The notes under the pieces are model-generated. The model was given only the letters and a program-made list of their open reading frames with translations, searched no databases and was not told the DNA's origin. From sequence record NC_105514.1: a DNA stretch of 64,000 bases, one strand, 5' to 3'. The DNA is from Escherichia phage JLBYU40. Numbering within the stretch: the first letter of the stretch is position 1; the number at the start of each line of letters is the position of its first letter. This document shows positions 36,343-58,669 of this stretch, piece by piece. Both the position numbers and the translations under genes were made by a program.

Positions 36343-36862
36343 TTAGAAATTTAGCTTCATAGCAAGAAAATTTTTCAAGTTTTCGGTAGACATCTCATCT
36401 ACATCTACAGGAGAAACAAAGCCGTTTAATTTTCTAGCAAATTTTTCACCATCGGGATCATTGTCTCCAACAGCTACCAATTTAAAAGGTAGTAATTTCA
36501 GTTGCTTTAATAACGCTTTTCCTGGAGAAGAACCCAACATTGCTAGGGCTGGATAACCAGCGTTATGTAACGCAACTGCCTTAAATACAGATTCAGCAAT
36601 CAATACTACTTTTTCATCTCCATTGAGAGTTTCTAGTCCCCATACACACTGGGTAGTAGAATAAGTAAAGTATTTAGCTTCAAAGGGGCACTTACCATGA
36701 CCTTTTGGAGCAGAAGGATTATAAGTTTGATAGCCCCTCAACATCCCAGAGAAGTCATACAACGGGACTGTTAGCCATCCTTCTGGACTTAACCAGCAAT
36801 GATATTTATCTGTATCAAATCCCCTAGATAAGAGGTGCTGTGTTAGCTCATCAACATTCATA
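36343..36862 (-). CDS. Toprim-domain protein
   Basis: 173 aa from the Met at 36862 beside an early promoter; IAES...VAVGDNDPDGEKFA resembles the Toprim E + DxD signature. Confidence 0.45.
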
Positions 36863-37036
36863 TTTGGTTCCTCTCTCAAATTTATAGATATATTATACAG
36901 AGAATTTAGCATTCAAGCAATCAAATTTTTTAACTTTTTAGAGGAAAATCATAGGGCGCTTAAGGGTAACAGATAAGTGGTGAGGACCAAAATTTGTGAC
37001 CCCACTAAAAATCCGGGGGCAATTTTTAAAGACCCC

Positions 37037-37065: not shown

Positions 37066-37127
37066 ATATGTTATGGATGAGTGATCAAAGAGACACACAT
37101 TTTCTATATACTAGGAGGTGTCAAAAA

Positions 37128-38114
37128 ATGACAGAAGAAGTAGCTAAGAGTCCTGAGACCGTCGCTAGCGTTGCAGCAGAACTGCACCGTCACGAGGAAT
37201 CAGATAAGAAAAAGTGGGAGAAGGTCAGAGCCTACGAAGAAAAACATCGTGAACACGATGATGAAGAAGATGACGATGATGAACATTGTCATAAATATGG
37301 AAAACATAAAATGCAAGAACCAGTAAACGTATTCACTAGTGGCTTCCCTGGCCTACTGGGTGGTTACCCAGCAAACGCAGGTGCTTTCGGTGGTGAAGGT
37401 ATGGGACTATTCGGAGCTATCCTAATCGGTGCTCTATTAACAGGTGGATTCGGTGGTTTCGGTGGATTCGGTGGACGTGGTGTAGTTGGTGAAGGTACCG
37501 CAGTTGATGCAGTACTTCAGAACCAAGATACCGCTAGTATTCTAGCAGCTATTAACACTACTCGTACAGAAGCTAATCAGGGTACTGGGGCTGTGTTAAG
37601 CGCAGTTAACAATGGTTTTAGCCAGACATCCCAAAACCAGAGCCGTGATACTCAGTCTGTACTAACTACGATTTATGGTACAGGTGCTAATCTGTCTAAT
37701 CAGATCTGCCAGGAAACTCGCAACGTTATTCAGGGTCAGTTCGATCTTTCTCGCCAGATTGATCAATCTTTCGCAGCTAACCAGATAGCTCGTGCACAAG
37801 ATAAATTTGATTCTGCACAGATCGCTTTCCAGCAGACTTTACAAACTAATAACCAGTTTGCCGCTGTTCAGGCTCAGATGTGTGCTAACCAGAACTCTCT
37901 GGAACGTCAGATCGCTGAATGTTGCTGTGAACTTCAGACTGCGATCGCTGGTGTAACTACTGCGCGTATCCAGGATGAGTTAGATGCATGTCGCCTACGT
38001 GAGGCAATCGCTGCGGGTAATGGTGCTAACGATCAGGTAATTAATCAAATCGCTGTAAGTCTTGGTGCAATCACTCAGACTCTGGCTGGTCTGCAGGCTA
38101 AACTGCCGGCTTAA
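37128..38114 (+). CDS. glycine-zipper membrane protein with acidic/His-rich N-terminus and Q/N-rich C-terminus
   Basis: 328 aa from ATG 37128 (RBS TAGGAGGTG); GLFGAILIGALLTGGFGGFGGFGG segment; CCC motif; GC visibly above flanks. Confidence 0.55.
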   Translation: MTEEVAKSPETVASVAAELHRHEESDKKKWEKVRAYEEKHREHDDEEDDDDEHCHKYGKHKMQEPVNVFTSGFPGLLGGYPANAGAFGGEGMGLFGAILIGALLTGGFGGFGGFGGRGVVGEGTAVDAVLQNQDTASILAAINTTRTEANQGTGAVLSAVNNGFSQTSQNQSRDTQSVLTTIYGTGANLSNQICQETRNVIQGQFDLSRQIDQSFAANQIARAQDKFDSAQIAFQQTLQTNNQFAAVQAQMCANQNSLERQIAECCCELQTAIAGVTTARIQDELDACRLREAIAAGNGANDQVINQIAVSLGAITQTLAGLQAKLPA

Positions 38115-38876: not shown

Positions 38877-39824
38877 TTATTTATTACGCATATCCATAAT
38901 CATTTGGCCATCATAGCCAGTGCCAACCACAGTCTGCGGTACACCACCTTGGTATTTCTGAGCACGAATCATTTCAACTTCCAGTTGCTTCCAGCGAATC
39001 ATCTCAGGAGTAATGGTACGTTGCAATGCGGCGTTAGCTTCAGCTTCTTTCTTAGCTGCATATAGTTTAGCATCTGCGTCACGTTCATTGGCAATAGCTT
39101 GGTTGTTGCGAGCTTCACGGTCTGCTTCTGCTTGTTTAACTTTTTGCTGTGCTTCCTGTTCAACGCGAGCCAGTTCAGCTTTCGCAGCATTAACTTGCTC
39201 TTCACGAACTTTGGTATTCTGTACCTGTTCCATGATTACCGGTGGCAAAGTAATATCCTGAAGGAATACCTGCTTAACTGTATAACCATATGGGCGTGCA
39301 TACTCTTCAACTTCCTGTTGAATTGCAGTTTGCAATTGAGCCTGAATTTTAGCATCAAACAAATCTTGTGCTTTAGGTACAGACTTACCAAACTCACGAA
39401 TAGTAGACAGTAATTTTTCAGTTACATACTTGTCTAGTGCCTGATCCTGAGTACCTGCGTTAATACGGTTAATTGGTGCCTTAGAACCATCAAACTGCAA
39501 CATAACAGTCAGGTCAACAGTGGATTTAAACTTATCCTGGCTAGGAACCTGAAGTTTATCTAATTTTACAGCAATATCTTTTGTACTAAAAGTGTCGAAA
39601 GATGCAAATGGGTTTACAAGATGGAAACCTGGTAATACTGGGTTAGGATCTACTTTACCCAGAAATGTTTGGGTTTTAACCGTACCATCAGAAACAATAG
39701 TATATGAATTAAAAGCTAGGATTAAACCTGCTAAACCAACTACAGCACCAATACCCCAACGTTTAATAGTACGAATTACTTTCTGCTCAGAAGTCAGTTC
39801 TTTCATATTTTTAGTATTAAACAT
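38877..39824 (-). CDS. SPFH/band-7 (prohibitin/HflC-like) membrane protein
   Basis: 315 aa; N-terminal TM helix, SPFH-like core, long charged coiled-coil C-terminus. Confidence 0.6.
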   Translation of the reverse strand: MFNTKNMKELTSEQKVIRTIKRWGIGAVVGLAGLILAFNSYTIVSDGTVKTQTFLGKVDPNPVLPGFHLVNPFASFDTFSTKDIAVKLDKLQVPSQDKFKSTVDLTVMLQFDGSKAPINRINAGTQDQALDKYVTEKLLSTIREFGKSVPKAQDLFDAKIQAQLQTAIQQEVEEYARPYGYTVKQVFLQDITLPPVIMEQVQNTKVREEQVNAAKAELARVEQEAQQKVKQAEADREARNNQAIANERDADAKLYAAKKEAEANAALQRTITPEMIRWKQLEVEMIRAQKYQGGVPQTVVGTGYDGQMIMDMRNK

Positions 39825-41440: not shown

Positions 41441-41908
41441 TTAAGTTTTAGTGACAACAGGTTTATAAAACGTATGTCCCTTAATCTTAGTTGTTTTCTT
41501 AAACTTCTTTGTCCAGTAAGGTTTATCTTTACCACTATGGAAGTATAGTGCTCCATGTGTAGGATCTTGTGGTAAATCAACGTAGTATATCACTCTAGCT
41601 AAATTCTTAGCGGTTTGCCAAGCCTCATCAGTTTTATCAACTTTTGGTCTCTTAGATACCCAAGAGAACTGGTTAGACTGATATACTACTTTACAGTAGG
41701 AATCTGGGAATTTACCGGAGTTTACACGGTTTTTAGTAACATGTGCAATCGCCGTCATTCCCTTTATGCCCTCACCACGACTTTCGAAATAGATATTTTT
41801 AGCAATGCAATCTATTTCTTTTGCATCGTGCGATGCCTGACTACTAAAGCTGAAGGTAAGGGCAGCTACTAAAAGCAAAGCTGCCTTCATTCTTTTTACT
41901 ACTGCCAA
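41441..41908 (-). CDS. secreted cell-wall hydrolase (SleB-like)
   Basis: 155 aa; signal peptide; IAHVTKNRV...FPDSYCKVVYQSNQFSW resembles the SleB hydrolase core. Confidence 0.5.
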   Translation of the reverse strand: MAVVKRMKAALLLVAALTFSFSSQASHDAKEIDCIAKNIYFESRGEGIKGMTAIAHVTKNRVNSGKFPDSYCKVVYQSNQFSWVSKRPKVDKTDEAWQTAKNLARVIYYVDLPQDPTHGALYFHSGKDKPYWTKKFKKTTKIKGHTFYKPVVTKT

Positions 41909-42213
41909 TCATATTCAACACGATTGGGATTTTCTTTATACCCTAAGTCAAGCAAATCATTACGCATATTTTGCTTAGCTACTGGGTTCGAGGTTACTAG
42001 TACCACTTTCTTTGGTCTCTGCCCAAATTCTAAGAGTAAACGAAGAATTTGATAACCTTCCATACCATCTACAGCCAAGTCATTATCCATATAAACGAAA
42101 TGGCCTGTGGTATCAGTTTTATTCAGAAACTCTACAGCGGCTTCTGGGGTTCGAATGATAATGTCCATTCCGTGAAGATTGCGCACGTCATCAATCAAAA
42201 TATGAAAAGTCAT
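41899..42213 (-). CDS. hypothetical protein (possible receiver-like fold)
   Basis: 104 aa; weak resemblance only. Confidence 0.35.
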   Translation of the reverse strand: MTFHILIDDVRNLHGMDIIIRTPEAAVEFLNKTDTTGHFVYMDNDLAVDGMEGYQILRLLLEFGQRPKKVVLVTSNPVAKQNMRNDLLDLGYKENPNRVEYDWQ

Positions 42214-53056: not shown

Positions 53057-53085
53057 TTGACATCCGCCCTCGAATGAGTTATAAT
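53057..53085 (+). promoter_or_regulatory. consensus sigma70 promoter upstream of nrdD
   Basis: -35 TTGACA, 17-bp spacer, -10 TATAAT; FNR-like TTGAC-N4-ATCAT at 53016-53029. Confidence 0.55.
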
Positions 53086-53114: not shown

Positions 53115-54989
53115 ATGAATCGTAATGAAGAACTAAAATATAAAGAAATGCAGGCGTTAATTAGAAACTGCAAAGAGATTATCGAAGGGTCAGCAGATGA
53201 AGAGCTGCTGTTTAATAATGCTAATAAACCCTCAGAACGTTTCCCTACACAAAGGGATATGCTTGCAGGTGAATTGAGTAAGTATCTAATTCTAGAAGAA
53301 ATGCCAATTCAGATTCGAAATGCTCATATGATTGGGGATATTCATTTCCATGATGCTGATTATGCTGCATTAGGCATGACTAACTGTTGCCTGGTAGCTC
53401 TGGAAGATATGTTGAAGAATGGTATGAAGGTTGGTAATGCTGAAATTAGCACTCCAAACTCTATCACTACTGCGGCGGCTATTACTGCTCAGATTATCAC
53501 TCAGGTTAGCTCCCATCAGTATGGTGGTACTTCTGTAGATCGCCTTGATGAAGTATTAGCCCCTTATGTTCGTAAATCCTATGACAAAAATCATGCGTTT
53601 GCAAAACGCTGGACTAAGGATGAGGCCAAAGCATCCGTAATGGCTACGGAGATGACTGAAAAAGAAGTCTATGATGCTTGTCAGGGTCTAGAGTATGAGA
53701 TCAATACGATGTTCAACTCTAATGGTCAGAGTCCATTTATTACCTTTGGTTTTGGTCTAGGAACTTCTTGGGAAGCTCGTCTAGTACAGAAAGCAATACT
53801 GAAAGTACGTATGGATGGTTTAGGTATCAATAAACGTACAGCTATCTTCCCGAAACTGGTATTTGTACTTCGTGATGGAGTAAATATGAAACCAGGAGAT
53901 GTTAATTATGACATCAAGAAGTTAGCTATGAAATGTACTGCTGAACGTATGTATCCAGATTATATCAGCTATGACAAAGTTGTAGAAGTTACTGGAGACT
54001 ACAAAGTTTCTATGGGCTGCCGTTCATTCCTAGCTGCTACAGAAGATGGTGAAACTGCAGGTCGTAATAACTTAGGTGTTGTTTCTGTAAACTTGCCTAG
54101 AATTGCTATCGAAGCTGAAGGAAATATTGACCTATTCTTTGATTTGCTTGAGCTACGTGTAGATACAGCATTAAAAGCGTTGGAGTGGAGAGTTGATCGC
54201 TTAAAATACATTCAAGCTAAAGCTGCACCCATCCTCTATATGTCAGGAGCCTTTGGGTTACGCTTAGGGCCTGATGAATATGTATTTGATCATTTCTATA
54301 ACCGTGCTTCTGTATCTCTAGGGTATATTGGTTGCCATGAAATGCTACAGTTCATGTTTGGCAAAGATGTAGACACAATGTCCGAGACCTGCATTAAGTT
54401 TGTTCAGCGTGTATTGCAGTACATGCGAGATAGAGTCGATCAGAAGAAGGAAGAAACTAAGTTAGGTTATAGCCTGTATGCTACACCATCAGAATCCCTA
54501 TGTGATCGTTTTTGTCGTCTAGACCGTGAATATTTCCCGGAGCATGAAGATATTCTGTCTAAAGGATACTACACTAACTCGCACCACCTTGATGTAGAAC
54601 GCAAAGTTGCTCCCAATGTGAAATTTGATTATGAATCTAATTTTACTCCGATTGCTTCTGGTGGGTGCATTTCCTATGTAGAACTACCAGATATGAAACG
54701 ATTCCCAGATGCACTGGAATGGGTTATTAATTATGCTGCTAGTAAAGTTCATTACTTCGGTATTAATACTCCAGTGGATTCTTGTGGTAAATGTGGATTC
54801 TTAGGTGAAACAATAGCATCCGAAGATGGATTTAAGTGCCCTATCTGTGGTAATCATGACCCCGAAACTCTTGAAGTAACTCGTCGAGTTTGTGGGTATC
54901 TTGGAAATCCAGGTGCTCGTCCATTTAACCCGGGCAAACAGCACGAGGTTATGGGCAGAGTGAAACATCAGGATATTCGAGCTAAATAA
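53115..54989 (+). CDS. nrdD: anaerobic ribonucleoside-triphosphate reductase (class III)
   Basis: 624 aa; C-terminal RRVCGYLG glycyl-radical motif and CxxC zinc ribbon. Confidence 0.75.
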   Translation: MNRNEELKYKEMQALIRNCKEIIEGSADEELLFNNANKPSERFPTQRDMLAGELSKYLILEEMPIQIRNAHMIGDIHFHDADYAALGMTNCCLVALEDMLKNGMKVGNAEISTPNSITTAAAITAQIITQVSSHQYGGTSVDRLDEVLAPYVRKSYDKNHAFAKRWTKDEAKASVMATEMTEKEVYDACQGLEYEINTMFNSNGQSPFITFGFGLGTSWEARLVQKAILKVRMDGLGINKRTAIFPKLVFVLRDGVNMKPGDVNYDIKKLAMKCTAERMYPDYISYDKVVEVTGDYKVSMGCRSFLAATEDGETAGRNNLGVVSVNLPRIAIEAEGNIDLFFDLLELRVDTALKALEWRVDRLKYIQAKAAPILYMSGAFGLRLGPDEYVFDHFYNRASVSLGYIGCHEMLQFMFGKDVDTMSETCIKFVQRVLQYMRDRVDQKKEETKLGYSLYATPSESLCDRFCRLDREYFPEHEDILSKGYYTNSHHLDVERKVAPNVKFDYESNFTPIASGGCISYVELPDMKRFPDALEWVINYAASKVHYFGINTPVDSCGKCGFLGETIASEDGFKCPICGNHDPETLEVTRRVCGYLGNPGARPFNPGKQHEVMGRVKHQDIRAK

Positions 54990-55031
54990 GCTAATCAGCT
55001 GGGTTGCTAGTCGACCTGGCTTTTATTTTAT

Positions 55032-55088: not shown

Positions 55089-55370
55089 ATGAGCGAGTTG
55101 CTTCCTAAAGTAGATGTCTCCCATCTTGGAGAGCCTAGTGAAGAACGTAAGGCTCTAGATTGGTTGGGTGGATTTGATTATCGTCGTGTTGTTGCAACAT
55201 GGAATGATAAGAAAGTTAAGAAGTTTCGGGTACATTATGTAGGTAAAGACAAGTGGCTCTGGATTGATTATGAAGAATCAAAGGGGTCTACTAAGGCTGT
55301 GAAAATTTATTGTATGTATGGGTATTATTATGCTCACTGTGATAAGAATGAATTTACAGTACAGAACTAA
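55089..55370 (+). CDS. hypothetical protein
   Basis: 93 aa; RBS GAGAGGAGAAAG. Confidence 0.5.
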   Translation: MSELLPKVDVSHLGEPSEERKALDWLGGFDYRRVVATWNDKKVKKFRVHYVGKDKWLWIDYEESKGSTKAVKIYCMYGYYYAHCDKNEFTVQN

Positions 55371-55379
55371 GGAACAAGA

Positions 55380-55583
55380 ATGAAAAACGTAAAACATCTT
55401 AAATATCGCTTAATTTACAACGGACGTATGGAAACAGAAGATCTGGCCCAATTAGCTATTAATTCTAATGAGGTTACGGTGCGTGCTCTGGCAATTGAAA
55501 AGTTGCGTGCCTCTTATGAAAATCGTGTTATGGAACTGGAGGAGAAACTTTATGGACTTCTTGAATCAGAATCTAAAAAGTAA
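55380..55583 (+). CDS. hypothetical protein
   Basis: 67 aa ORF. Confidence 0.4.
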   Translation: MKNVKHLKYRLIYNGRMETEDLAQLAINSNEVTVRALAIEKLRASYENRVMELEEKLYGLLESESKK

Positions 55584-55746
55584 TCCAGAAAACATGCTTA
55601 TTGAGCAATGGAACTTTGGTTATAATGCTGGTGTAGCTACTTGTATTGCTAGATTGGATACGCTTATTAAGCAAGAAAAGGTACGCCCTGAGGAAGCAAT
55701 TTTACTCCAAAATATTATCGAAGGATTTAAGCAAGGAATCGTATAG
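55552..55746 (+). CDS. hypothetical protein
   Basis: 64 aa from ATG 55552 with RBS GGAGGAGAAA; internal start of the longer listed ORF. Confidence 0.4.
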   Translation: MDFLNQNLKSNPENMLIEQWNFGYNAGVATCIARLDTLIKQEKVRPEEAILLQNIIEGFKQGIV

Positions 55747-56582
55747 TGCGTAGATTAGTTATTATTAGCGGTGCAGGTTTGAGTGTTGAAAGTGGTGTAC
55801 GAGCTTTTCGTACTGATACTGCTAGTGGTAAAGCATTGTGGGATGATTATGATCTAGAAGAAGTATGTAATATTCATGCCTTTCGTGGTAATTTTTATCA
55901 TAAAACCCATATGTTTTACAACAAACGTCGTGAAGAGCTAAAAACTGTTGAACCCAATCTTGCACATTTGCGTATTGGTGAATGGTATAAACAATATCCA
56001 GGTCAAGTAGTAAACTTGACTACCAACGTTGATGACCTTATTGAGCGTGCTGGCGTTCCACATAGTGACATTCTGCACATTCACGGATATTTAAAAGAGG
56101 TTGTTGTAGCTGATAGCTACAATAGTAGCAATAAACGGATTATTGATGTAGGGTATAATTCTATTGATCCAGATGATTATAAATGGGTTAAACCTAATGT
56201 AATCTTCTTTGGAGAACATGCTCCTGCATACGCAGAAATGTATAATGTTTTTGATGGTATTACCAGTCAAGATATGATCATTGTGGTTGGTTGCTCTAAT
56301 CAAGTAATTAACTTCTACTGGGAATTATTTCCTGTTCTTAATTTGACTGCTGCCAAACTAATGGTAGTTAACTACTATGATAGTGCCATAGCAGCAGAGC
56401 CAGGCTATCAAGGTATGACTCGTAGTGAGATGTACCAACTGGAAGATCGTGGTATTCCTTACTGGAGTAAAGGTGCAGTAGATGCTTTTAGTGACCCTGA
56501 TTTTATTGCTCGTGTGGAAGCCCATTTAGAGGGTAGACCTTATGTGCCGGAGAGAAGGGGAAACAGATATGTCCATAGTTAA
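55746..56582 (+). CDS. Sir2-like (sirtuin-family) NAD-binding protein
   Basis: 278 aa; GAGLSVESGVRAFR, TTNVDDLIERAG and HIHGYL sirtuin-type motifs. Confidence 0.6.
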   Translation: MRRLVIISGAGLSVESGVRAFRTDTASGKALWDDYDLEEVCNIHAFRGNFYHKTHMFYNKRREELKTVEPNLAHLRIGEWYKQYPGQVVNLTTNVDDLIERAGVPHSDILHIHGYLKEVVVADSYNSSNKRIIDVGYNSIDPDDYKWVKPNVIFFGEHAPAYAEMYNVFDGITSQDMIIVVGCSNQVINFYWELFPVLNLTAAKLMVVNYYDSAIAAEPGYQGMTRSEMYQLEDRGIPYWSKGAVDAFSDPDFIARVEAHLEGRPYVPERRGNRYVHS

Positions 56583-56751
56583 ATCTGTTTATACACATCC
56601 CGATGATATATTTGTATGGGCGGACGGTAGTTGGTGCTATCGCTGTGAGCTGTGGGAAATGGACTATAAATCCGATGACTATGGTGTCATATATGTTGAT
56701 ACGGCTGAGTATGATACGTTCTTAGAAAGGAACAAAAATGGAAATAAGTAA
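56569..56751 (+). CDS. hypothetical acidic protein
   Basis: 60 aa from ATG 56569 with RBS AGAAGGGGA. Confidence 0.35.
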   Translation: MSIVKSVYTHPDDIFVWADGSWCYRCELWEMDYKSDDYGVIYVDTAEYDTFLERNKNGNK

Positions 56752-57244
56752 TACTCCAATTATTTTTCTAGATATTGATGGGGTGCTCAATTCGAGCATC
56801 TCCCACCATCATGCGCCTGATCATGAAAAGATTTTCTTTGGAAGTGACTGGGTTTTCAAACCGCTTCTCAAGGCTTTTCAGGACTTTATTCGTCCTTCTC
56901 CGATAATGATTGTTGGAGTATCCTCATGGTTCCCTGTCAGGAATGAGATGGAGAACGTTCAGATTATGACCGGATTAGGTCTTATCGATCGTTTTCTTGG
57001 TACAACGGATTTTACTGGTGGTGGGCTATCTAGGGGTAATTCTGTTCTTCGCTTCGTTGAAAAGCATAAGCTCAAACATTGGTGTGTGCTGGATGATGCT
57101 GGTGCTATGATGTACCAGTATCCAACGGTTATAGTCAACGGTAGAACTGGAATAAATCTTCAAGATTTAAGAGCTGTTAGCTATATGCTAGAATTTAGCC
57201 CAGATCTTGAAATGTGTAAATCCTTACAACAATTTAAGGTGTAA
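56738..57244 (+). CDS. HAD-like hydrolase
   Basis: 168 aa; N-terminal IIFLDIDGVLN (DxDGV). Confidence 0.45.
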   Translation: MEISNTPIIFLDIDGVLNSSISHHHAPDHEKIFFGSDWVFKPLLKAFQDFIRPSPIMIVGVSSWFPVRNEMENVQIMTGLGLIDRFLGTTDFTGGGLSRGNSVLRFVEKHKLKHWCVLDDAGAMMYQYPTVIVNGRTGINLQDLRAVSYMLEFSPDLEMCKSLQQFKV

Positions 57245-57246
57245 AT

Positions 57247-57675
57247 ATGTTCAATAATGTATTCTCTAAAGAAGCTAACCCAATTTTGGTTAACTTTTGG
57301 CGTACTCTCCCGGCTAGCCTGTATAATGAGGCTATTAACTCCTTGAAAATATGGTGTGAAAATAATGAAATCTCCTTTGCTTTTAAAGATGATATTGATG
57401 AGGCCCCCTGTATTGGTTTAGTTGTGCAGGTAGAGGATGGTCTTGAAGAGATTGTGGGCTGGAAAGAGTTAGACGAAATGGGCTTAGTTTTTGCGTTAAA
57501 TTATAAGCTGTTTATGCCTGCTAAGCATCGCCTCGTTGTTAACCATAAAACTAGTGAATCTCCTGGTTTTCAGGTTAATGAACGTTATGGTTGGTCTTAC
57601 TCACCGGAAGAAGTAAATGAGGGGATTCAGAAACTTCGCCGTTTTGGTTATCAGATTCCGGGTTTAACTGCTTAA
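57247..57675 (+). CDS. hypothetical protein, paralog A
   Basis: 142 aa; shares D(D/E)PCIG...W(K/N)EL(D/S)(E/A)MGL(V/I)(F/V)ALN(Y/F)(K/S)LF(M/H)P and ...Y(Q/V)(I/P)PGL(T/N) with the next ORF. Confidence 0.5.
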   Translation: MFNNVFSKEANPILVNFWRTLPASLYNEAINSLKIWCENNEISFAFKDDIDEAPCIGLVVQVEDGLEEIVGWKELDEMGLVFALNYKLFMPAKHRLVVNHKTSESPGFQVNERYGWSYSPEEVNEGIQKLRRFGYQIPGLTA

Positions 57676-57684
57676 GGAGGCAGA

Positions 57685-58077
57685 ATGGAACAAGTATATT
57701 GGCGTCAGATTGATCCTAGTTTGGTGAAGCGTGCGGAGAAGCTGCTACAACGTTGGTTGGGGGTAAGACAAGCCTCCTTCACTTTTCCGGAGCAGCAAAT
57801 AGACGATCCCTGTATTGGTGTTTTCCTATCAGGCTACGCTAGGGAATGGGAATTGGATTGGAATGAATTGTCTGCTATGGGCTTGATTGTTGCCCTAAAC
57901 TTCTCTTTGTTCCATCCACGTGGTTTGGCCATATGTCGTGTGCCTGATGACGGTTGTTCGCCCCATCTTTTACAGGTGGAAGATGATATTTGGGAGTACA
58001 CTCCAGATATTCTCACAGAAGCTAAAGAACAATTAAATCGTGTTGGGATTTATGTTCCGGGCTTAAATGATGAATGA
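57685..58077 (+). CDS. hypothetical protein, paralog B
   Basis: 130 aa; tandem paralog of 57247-57675; RBS AGGAGG. Confidence 0.5.
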   Translation: MEQVYWRQIDPSLVKRAEKLLQRWLGVRQASFTFPEQQIDDPCIGVFLSGYAREWELDWNELSAMGLIVALNFSLFHPRGLAICRVPDDGCSPHLLQVEDDIWEYTPDILTEAKEQLNRVGIYVPGLNDE

Positions 58078-58168
58078 TTTTTATTAGCTGAAATTTGTAA
58101 TCCGGGCTATTAGTGCTCGGATTATTACATAATCTTTCCAGTCGATTGACAGTCAAAATAAATTGTCG

Positions 58169-58197
58169 TTGACAATTTGGATGGATTATGTAATAAT
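58169..58197 (+). promoter_or_regulatory. candidate promoter with palindromic TTGACA repeats
   Basis: GATTGACAGTCAA...GTTGACAAT with an A/T-rich -10-like AATAAT at 17 bp. Confidence 0.3.
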
Positions 58198-58216
58198 ATA
58201 TGTATTGGAGGTGAGG

Positions 58217-58669
58217 ATGTCATTCACACAGCAAGAACTTTTAGATAACTTCCGATATGAAGATGGTAAGTTATTTAGAACTACAGGAAGAAATGCAGGG
58301 AAAGAATGTTGTGTTTCTACGGGTAACGGATATTATCGTATATCTCTAGGGAATAGGACTATGCTTCGGCATAGAGCAATATTTTTAATGCATCATGGAT
58401 ACTTACCTGATTTAGTAGATCATGTGAATACTATAAAAGGTGATGATCGTATTGAAAATCTTAGAGAGCAGACAGTGTCCGGTAATCTAAGAAATATCAA
58501 ATATAAGAAAGGAATGCATGTTTACCCTTCTGGTAGTAAGAACTGGCAAGTAGTATTTACTATTAACCGTAAACGTATAGTTAAAGGAACATATGACAAC
58601 TATGAGGTTGCATGTTCTATGGCCAAGATGTTTAGAGGTCAATTATACGGTAGGGAATCAATCCAGTAA
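58217..58669 (+). CDS. HNH homing-endonuclease-like protein
   Basis: 150 aa from ATG 58217 (RBS GGAGGTGAGG); HRAIFLMHHGYLP...VDHVNTIKGDDRIENLR. Confidence 0.55.
   Translation: MSFTQQELLDNFRYEDGKLFRTTGRNAGKECCVSTGNGYYRISLGNRTMLRHRAIFLMHHGYLPDLVDHVNTIKGDDRIENLREQTVSGNLRNIKYKKGMHVYPSGSKNWQVVFTINRKRIVKGTYDNYEVACSMAKMFRGQLYGRESIQ

Follow-up and report, generated by a model that had tools for sequence, protein, structure and literature searches.

A sirtuin and HAD phosphatase gene module of T5-like phages as a candidate for NAD-dependent RNA-end repair

Genes at the locus

Three tightly packed genes of Escherichia phage JLBYU40, coding for a sirtuin, a small acidic protein and a phosphatase of the HAD type, were analysed within a 64,000-nucleotide stretch of DNA (sequence record NC_105514.1), hereafter called the window. 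Their conservation, together with the genes that accompany the sirtuin in other phages, tentatively points to a role in the repair of cleaved RNA that depends on nicotinamide adenine dinucleotide (NAD). The loci and contigs used for comparison are designated by L numbers. The three genes, the second of which is a small open reading frame (ORF), are as follows.

55746-56582, plus strand: sirtuin, 278 residues, GTG start (Pfam SIR2, PF02146; PHROG 2162)
56569-56751, plus strand: small acidic ORF, 60 residues (PHROG 5116, without a Pfam family)
56738-57244, plus strand: HAD phosphatase (HAD_SAK_2), 168 residues (Pfam PF18143)

The packing is operon-like. The sirtuin gene overlaps the small ORF by 14 nucleotides, the small ORF overlaps the HAD gene by another 14 nucleotides, and the gene after HAD begins 3 nucleotides downstream of it. 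An initial annotation made from the DNA sequence had described a protein of 278 residues with sirtuin motifs, an acidic ORF of 60 residues and a HAD-like hydrolase with the motif FLDIDGVLN, and all of these are present at the coordinates listed above. Its Sir2 and HAD assignments were likewise borne out by matches far beyond chance, with expectation values (E) of 8.3e-25 for PF02146 (88.2 bits versus a cutoff of 24; residues 9-187 correspond to profile positions 1-178 of 180) and 1.5e-19 for PF18143 (71.2 bits versus a cutoff of 27.5). As to the profiles that it had proposed for the sirtuin, SIR2 was recovered, but SIR2_2 and DUF4020 were not, PF02146 being the only family reported by Pfam. 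The match of the sirtuin to PHROG 2162 is stronger still (E 2.7e-121). The adjacency of sirtuin and HAD that had caught the attention of the initial annotation is real, and has been conserved among T5-like phages, even in divergent members where the order is reversed.

A region of 3.2 kb around the sirtuin and HAD genes is 96.6% identical in nucleotide sequence to Escherichia phage VEc33 (Tequintavirus, Demerecviridae), a phage with an identical gene order, and matches 444 phage records. Homologues of the sirtuin occur in about 1000 phage records, and their carriers comprise T5-like phages, rV5-like and Mydo-like Vequintavirinae, Phapecoctavirus, Klebsiella T5-like phages, jumbo phages and Vibrio schizoT4 phages. 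Therapy collections commonly include T5-like and rV5-like phages as well as several jumbo phages. A single scan of 185,579 bacterial genomes, limited to two peptide patterns, found no bacterial relatives of the phage sirtuin clade.

A previous study (Iyer, Burroughs, Anantharaman and Aravind 2022; Viruses 14:1977, PMC9503650) described a distinct phage sirtuin clade with three types of gene neighbourhood: jumbo phages with 2H, Nudix, cREC and PIN genes (type 1); rV5 and Mydo with a T4-like RNA ligase, cREC, a kinase, MazG and a calcineurin-like phosphoesterase (type 2); and the type of Escherichia phage SP15, in which the sirtuin is accompanied by a stand-alone "Swiss army knife" HAD phosphatase (type 3). 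The authors predicted NAD-dependent RNA repair, in which the sirtuin, acting like KptA, strips 2'-phosphates from RNA; this prediction was absent from the initial annotation. Types 1 and 2 were reproduced here. SP15, which is T5-like, carries the same HAD as the window, and the window is another member of the published SP15-type neighbourhood, with no difference in kind from type 3. Because that neighbourhood has been described and SP15 shares the HAD, the sirtuin-HAD pair is already known at the level of comparative genomics. For the window itself there is nothing new: the neighbourhood is published, the genes are 97-99% identical to genes already annotated, and many records (hundreds in GenBank) already name the sirtuin Sir2 or NAD-dependent deacetylase. 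What is added to the published picture is a conserved small ORF, allele exchange, natural deletions, a separate cREC gene and the occurrence of the HAD in NARP1 operons.

Conserved residues and predicted fold of the sirtuin

The sirtuin motifs of the window protein are GAGLSVESGVRAFR (residues 9-22), TTNVDDLIERAG (residues 92-103) and HIHGYL (residues 111-116). The first represents the Rossmann NAD-binding motif GAGxS...SGIPxFR, in which the phage clade shows no variation at G9, A10, G11, S13, S16, G17, F21 and R22. Across 121 aligned phage homologues, with identities as low as about 50%, the GAGxS and FR motifs, Y58, R61, T93-N94-x-D96, H113-G114, FFGE, GxS and N209 are all invariant. The catalytic histidine, the absence of which had been set beforehand as the refuting observation, is present as His113; it aligns with the HMHG histidine of Escherichia coli CobB and is found in 121 of 121 homologues. 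Equally invariant are Tyr58 and Arg61 (FYNKRR), which align with FYNARR of CobB and represent the Tyr-x-x-Arg pair of class III sirtuins. Within the TQN[IV]D motif, N94 and D96 never vary, but the glutamine that is the norm in other sirtuins is replaced by threonine (T93) in all 121 sequences.

The zinc-ribbon cysteines, which the initial annotation had also singled out, are absent. The four zinc-binding cysteines are missing in all homologues: the segment between HG and FFGE contains no cysteine in the window protein and 0-2 across the 121, none of which has more than two. The CobB-like small-domain segment is nonetheless kept (33-51 residues across the homologues), and a small beta module is still modelled in the window protein. 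Judged by these residues, the sirtuin is catalytically intact but zinc-less.

The closest solved relatives by sequence are E. coli CobB (1s5p, E 2.4e-17), archaeal Sir2Af1/2 and SIRT5. An AlphaFold2 model built from 33 homologues is confident (pLDDT 89, pTM 0.87), and a Foldseek search with it returned CobB as the best match (TM-score 0.86, normalised to CobB), followed by Sir2Af1 and SIRT5. The phage sirtuin thus shares with CobB and SIRT5 the fold, the GAGxS and FR motifs, the asparagine and aspartate of the NAD pocket, the catalytic His-Gly, the FGE loop and the Tyr-x-x-Arg pair. It differs from them in its low identity (22-25%), in the loss of the zinc cysteines, in the threonine of the TQN[IV]D motif, and in a gene context of RNA-end processing rather than acyl-CoA synthetase control. 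Orthology to CobB was rejected, the scores being 90 bits versus 320 for NCBIfam NF040867 and 99.9 versus 243 for NF001753; CobB is kept as a fold relative.

The sirtuin might then be an ordinary NAD-dependent lysine deacylase of the CobB/SIRT5 kind, possibly a desuccinylase, that remodels the acylation of the host or the phage, with the HAD gene as an unrelated neighbour. This would be the default for a class III sirtuin of PF02146 with those structural matches, with the catalytic histidine, the NAD pocket, the FFGE loop and the Tyr-x-x-Arg pair all invariant, and with a small domain retained despite the loss of its zinc ligands. The gene is also situated among nucleotide-metabolism genes, the host counterparts of which are acetylation targets. 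Deacetylase activity has, moreover, been proposed for the sirtuins of Vibrio phages in a study that recorded zinc-less proteins there and listed T5 as a carrier (PMC5107563). On the other hand, scores of 90-100 bits are far under the CobB thresholds of 243-320, and the universal loss of the zinc site and the threonine in place of glutamine fit a standard deacylase poorly. We regard this explanation as possible but rather doubtful, in part for reasons of gene context and allele exchange given below. With a plain deacylase function, the protein would provide the first example of a phage that resets the acylation of host proteins.

The initial annotation had instead placed the protein near the NAD-consuming Sir2 effectors of bacterial defence systems. 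That kinship was not upheld: the domain is a canonical PF02146, and its nearest solved relatives are the deacylases CobB and SIRT5. The defence type of Sir2 was rejected after a PADLOC scan (E 0.01) of the sirtuin, the small ORF, the HAD and both DUF7415 proteins encoded downstream, which gave no match. The sirtuin is a single-domain protein, and no sensor partner lies nearby. Since the Sir2 fold can act as an NADase, the protein could still hydrolyse NAD in the manner of defence Sir2 domains, either depleting the host or excluding competing phages, and the small acidic ORF could in principle encode an inhibitor or antitoxin-like partner. Such a role is very unlikely, however, given that no defence Sir2 is matched, that the protein retains, as deacylases do, the small domain for substrate binding and the residues of the acyl pocket, and that T5-like phages need NAD for their own DNA ligase, a split NAD-dependent enzyme encoded in the T5-like genome.

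The HAD phosphatase and its pairing with the sirtuin

The FLDIDGVLN motif occupies residues 10-18 of the HAD protein and contains motif I (D12xD14). Motif II is represented by S62/S63, motif III by R99 (inside GGGxxRG) and motif IV by D119/D120, and all of these are invariant in 14 homologues. The predicted fold is the HAD Rossmannoid fold, and the protein is capless. Capless HADs usually act on macromolecular substrates; others of this kind, the phosphatase domain of T4 Pnkp, MDP-1 and Scp1, are among the closest known systems. The HAD_SAK_2 family itself was defined from predicted RNA-repair "Swiss army knife" proteins, and its name rests on comparative genomics.

The sirtuin-HAD arrangement was found in 14 of the 15 T5-like loci recovered by a HAD scan of IMG/VR and in all 23 Tequintavirus loci recovered by a sirtuin scan. 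Divergent T5-like contigs show the reverse of the window order, with the HAD first, followed by one or two small ORFs, the sirtuin and a small ORF, and there the HAD is 39-43% and the sirtuin 61-68% identical to the window proteins. The pairing of the two genes therefore survives gene-order rearrangement.

RefSeq (e.g. NC_048818.1) labels the HAD gene "Sir2 (NAD-dependent deacetylase)". PHROG 18062, a family of 92 positions named Sir2, matches HAD residues 77-168, i.e. its C-terminal half, with E 4.8e-58, and the true sirtuin only weakly (E 8.9e-07). The label is a propagated mis-annotation that appears to stem from the naming of this PHROG.

Gene neighbourhoods of sirtuin orthologues

Genes for RNA-end processing recur beside the phage sirtuins. 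The orthologue of rV5_ev147 and KpS8 (57-60% identical) is the last gene of a cassette made up of an RNA_lig_T4_1 ligase, a cREC_REC protein, an AAA_33 kinase-like P-loop protein and the sirtuin, and an ATP-dependent DNA ligase follows; in rV5, a metallophosphoesterase gene and a tRNA cluster also lie nearby. Among 31 non-Tequintavirus IMG/VR loci found with a sirtuin profile, 10 hold a co-directional cassette of metallophosphoesterase, RNA ligase, kinase and sirtuin (cREC was detected in seven of these), and two more are cut off or incomplete. Over rV5, KpS8 and the IMG/VR loci, the cassette sirtuins are 57-64% identical. Five of the 31 loci are T5-like with an adjacent HAD, and in another (L128) the HAD lies 2.3 kb downstream; no recognisable partners were seen in about 10. 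In the jumbo phage fHe-Yen9-04, a single gene run contains NadM-Nudix, NAMPT, a 2H protein, the sirtuin and a Nudix-cREC fusion. This recurrent linkage in three phage groups is left unexplained if the sirtuin is a deacylase.

The window also carries a cREC gene, located 13.5 kb from the sirtuin.

41899-42213, minus strand: cREC_REC domain protein, 104 residues (Pfam PF20274, E 3.7e-15)

This T5-like protein is 30% identical to the rV5 cREC encoded two genes before the rV5 sirtuin, and it is a possible distant functional partner of the window sirtuin.

The cREC gene is annotated only as hypothetical in VEc33. It lies at the edge of the tRNA gene region and adjoins a SleB-like cell-wall hydrolase gene (41441-41908), a DUF7616 ORF and a YqeY-like ORF.

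A tentative route to RNA-end repair

From the domain identities, the intact catalytic residues, the predicted folds, the gene packing and the linkage to RNA-end-processing genes in three phage groups, we infer a substrate, a chemistry and a biological purpose. The sirtuin, small ORF and HAD genes form a conserved, non-essential early-gene module of T5-like phages. The role that we consider the most likely, although with somewhat less than an even chance, would be the NAD-dependent repair or healing of cleaved RNA, probably tRNA cut by host defence nucleases. The argument starts from the recurrent association of the sirtuin with ligase, kinase, cREC, 2H, metallophosphoesterase and HAD genes. 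It is supported by the membership of the HAD partner in an RNA-repair "Swiss army knife" family and by a pairing that outlasts reversal of the gene order, by the presence of a cREC protein in the T5-like genome, and by the capless build of the HAD, a type that generally acts on macromolecules. The same prediction was reached independently from gene neighbourhoods by Iyer et al. (PMC9503650).

In such a scheme, the sirtuin would use NAD+ to place ADP-ribose on a phosphate oxygen, either of a 2'-phosphate or of an RNA terminal phosphate, rather than on an acyl-lysine oxygen. The 2''-hydroxyl of the ribose, activated via His113, would then attack the phosphate, so that ADP-ribose cyclic phosphate leaves and nicotinamide is released. 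The phosphate that remains, whether on the RNA end or on the ADP-ribose-phosphate by-product, would next be removed by the HAD. In SIRT5 and CobB the Tyr/Arg pair serves to bind an anionic group, so Tyr58 and Arg61 could hold the phosphate.

The route would be formally parallel to that of Tpt1/KptA, where a substrate oxygen attacks C1'' of NAD and the 2''-hydroxyl subsequently attacks the electrophilic centre of the substrate. The product of Tpt1, ADP-ribose cyclic phosphate, is then opened and dephosphorylated (by Cpd1 and Poa1p in yeast), and cREC and HAD would fit those steps. There is, however, no homology between the two enzymes, Tpt1 having an ADP-ribosyltransferase fold, and the likeness serves as a working analogy only. 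An action on RNA phosphates, if true, would be a chemistry new to the sirtuin fold and would give phages a new way to counter defences that cut tRNA.

Several observations weigh against RNA-end repair. All residues for ordinary lysine deacylation are conserved, the closest solved structures are all protein deacylases, and the sirtuin is not distinguishable from a deacylase by its sequence; it is also acidic (isoelectric point 5.6), which is atypical for RNA-binding proteins. Genes in the early regions of phages can also cluster because they are expressed at the same time, without a common function. A sirtuin within 10 kb was seen in none of the 46 IMG/VR loci with distant HAD relatives, and a Pfam scan of four genes neighbouring the Phapecoctavirus sirtuin revealed only domains of unknown function and no recognisable repair genes. 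Neither the annotation of the T5-like genome nor tblastn of the rV5 and KpS8 proteins against the window and the rest of VEc33 revealed an RNA ligase or a polynucleotide kinase, so that a complete repair pathway would need host enzymes; a highly divergent ligase could have escaped this purely sequence-based search. Nor was a yeast-type ligase, of the kind that makes a 2'-phosphate junction, found in the T5-like genome. Finally, full-text searches of the literature revealed no biochemical or genetic study of any phage sirtuin or of this HAD, and the PhageMaP essentiality study of phage Bas63 contains no report on the Bas63 sirtuin.

NARP1 and NAD-derived small molecules

A homologue of the HAD (39-43% identical) heads an operon with a Prs-like and a Nampt-like gene in a few Vequintavirinae, such as Serratia phage ChuuTotoro (L007, 8001-11217) and a related 151-kb contig (L010, 10001-13519); in the 20-50 kb examined around it, no sirtuin was called or annotated. 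Such a gene pair constitutes NARP1, which in another phage of the Vequintavirinae, Bas63, was shown to restore NAD, with ADP-ribose and nicotinamide as the starting materials. A recent preprint (Osterman et al. 2026; bioRxiv 10.64898/2026.01.28.702374) described NARP1-AP, in which Adps and Namat are joined by a Macro-domain phosphatase, Adpp, that turns ADP-ribose-1''-phosphate into ADP-ribose and thereby beats the aRES defence. The ChuuTotoro-like operons resemble NARP1-AP in having an accessory phosphatase gene, with the HAD homologue in the position of Adpp. They differ from it in that the phosphatase has a HAD rather than a Macro fold, and the window phage is without detectable Adps and Namat. 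By analogy, the HAD may represent a second, non-homologous type of NARP1 accessory phosphatase.

The initial annotation had suggested that the sirtuin and its phosphatase neighbour could manipulate host NAD or ADP-ribose metabolism, which is possible but is not the leading reading. In a concrete form, the pair would serve counter-defence by acting on small molecules derived from NAD: the HAD, as a non-homologous equivalent of Adpp, would take the phosphate off ADP-ribose phosphates (ADP-ribose-1''-phosphate, for instance), the sirtuin would bind or convert signals or products that derive from NAD, and the small acidic protein would act as a regulator of the sirtuin. Besides the HAD-headed operons and the precedent of an ADP-ribose-1''-phosphate phosphatase recruited to NARP1, this is favoured by a divergent Prs-like and Nampt-like (NARP1-like) pair located 5-8 kb from the sirtuin of Vequintavirinae in nine of the 31 loci (eight cassette loci and L127), by the jumbo-phage gene run that joins the sirtuin to NAMPT and NadM, and by the dependence of the T5-like DNA ligase on NAD. 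The 2H neighbour in that jumbo phage also matches Acb1, an anti-CBASS family, and the so-called RNA repair neighbourhoods might degrade nucleotide immune signals instead. Even so, a tblastn search of the window and the rest of VEc33 with the ChuuTotoro Prs-like and Nampt-like proteins found no NARP1 genes in the T5-like genome, and none are annotated there. The HAD-NARP1 arrangement is also rare, being limited to three GenBank records plus metagenomic contigs carrying P0136 and P0138 (of which L010 was examined). A capless HAD would favour large substrates, and no known activity of canonical sirtuins fits the degradation of a signal. We therefore consider this explanation unlikely. Were the HAD to act on ADP-ribose phosphates, it would be a second, unrelated phosphatase in the NAD arms race of NARP1, NARP1-AP and aRES.

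The jumbo-phage 2H protein (g102 of fHe-Yen9-04; L132, 3842-4288) is encoded three genes upstream of the sirtuin, and its match to Acb1 (E 2.6e-17) is better than that to the generic 2'-5' RNA ligase family. Linkage to a Macro-domain gene, of the SirTM type, was not seen among the nine ORFs scanned by Pfam between 55089 and 58669. For NARP3 (NadR, PnuC), the Pfam check covered, out of the whole window, four larger ORFs at 36-40 kb, none of which is NadR or PnuC.

The small acidic ORF and cassette exchange

The small ORF has an isoelectric point of 4.35, with 12 Asp/Glu versus 6 Lys/Arg, and is preceded by a good ribosome-binding site, GAGAAGGGG. It matches PHROG 5116 with E 2.3e-30, and in L005 and L006, two divergent T5-like contigs, a homologue that shares the motif DIFVxxxGxWCYR comes immediately after the sirtuin, so that the small ORF follows the sirtuin in both gene arrangements. 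A zinc site in this protein was rejected, the CxxC of the window copy not being conserved in homologues. The small ORF is absent and the sirtuin kept in four of the 23 Tequintavirus loci (L082, L086, L088 and L091), where, as a result of the loss, the sirtuin abuts the HAD. This would be unlikely for an essential antidote, and further lowers the probability of an NADase effector.

A comparison with locus L112 revealed a sharp mosaic boundary. The nrdD gene and the three ORFs upstream of the sirtuin are 92-99% identical to those of the window and the primase-helicase is 90% identical, whereas the sirtuin and the small ORF (L112, 10001-10985, versus window 55746-56751) are only 52% and 56% identical, respectively; the HAD is 89% and the downstream DUF7415 pair 72-73% identical. 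The window sirtuin allele is nearer to rV5-like alleles than to its sister allele in L112. In L115, nrdD (60%) and the 64-residue ORF (58%) are swapped as well. As judged from these identities, the sirtuin and the small ORF are exchanged jointly, as a cassette, between near-identical phages. Exchange of alleles together with a small partner suggests a role in conflict and not in housekeeping, which again argues against a plain deacylase.

Natural deletions also occur: L030 has no sirtuin and a HAD without its N-terminal third, and phage DT57C (NC_027356.1) retains only the last 41 HAD residues, in a gene named sir2. The sirtuin-HAD module is therefore dispensable. Such variants, along with the lost zinc site, could be taken as signs of a sirtuin that is no more than a remnant, catalytically dead or in decay. 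This is, however, the least credible explanation and extremely improbable, as the catalytic and NAD-binding residues are invariant in 121 homologues down to 50% identity, the model is confident and well folded, and the gene is kept in some 1000 phage records from several phage families.

A broader proposal extends RNA-end repair to the whole clade. The phage sirtuins would not be protein deacetylases but Tpt1/KptA analogues that strip RNA phosphates, or enzymes otherwise acting on phosphates; the HAD would be a new, non-Macro ADP-ribose-phosphate phosphatase, serving NARP1 operons as well; and, with the co-evolving small protein, the two would make up an exchangeable counter-defence cassette of T5-like phages. 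Taken as a whole, this is a speculative proposition that is more probably wrong than right.

Flanking genes and transcription signals

The module lies between nrdD and a primase-helicase gene, with the following features around it.

53057-53085, plus strand: sigma-70 consensus promoter (12/12 match: TTGACA, 17-nucleotide spacer, TATAAT), 30 nucleotides before nrdD
53115-54989, plus strand: nrdD
54997-55021, plus strand: terminator-like hairpin directly after nrdD (10-bp stem, then a T run)
55089-55746, plus strand: three small ORFs of 93, 67 and 64 residues between nrdD and the sirtuin (PHROGs 7953, 5236 and 5827)
57247-57675 and 57685-58077, plus strand: DUF7415 paralogue pair, 142 and 130 residues (PF24187, E 3.9e-34 and 1.1e-31)
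58163-58669, plus strand: HNH_3 homing endonuclease, between the DUF7415 pair and the primase-helicase
From 59127, plus strand: primase-helicase

No strong promoter was found between the nrdD terminator and the sirtuin, and the three small upstream ORFs are probably co-transcribed with the sirtuin cluster. A homologue of the 93-residue ORF is also found upstream of the HAD in contig L006.

The DUF7415 proteins, encoded directly 3' of the HAD, are both acidic and 32% identical to each other. In T5-like loci the pair is kept after the sirtuin and HAD, and it is also kept in L124, where the HAD is missing; it is an uncertain member of the sirtuin module.

The HNH_3 gene is missing at the same site in VEc33 and present in phage ECOP18, and for this reason appears to be a mobile insertion.

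Elsewhere in the window, a Toprim-domain ORF (36343-36912, minus strand) and an ORF of 348 residues without a Pfam match (37068-38114, plus strand) were noted, as well as an SPFH/Band 7 protein (38877-39824, minus strand) that is annotated elsewhere as a lipoprotein.

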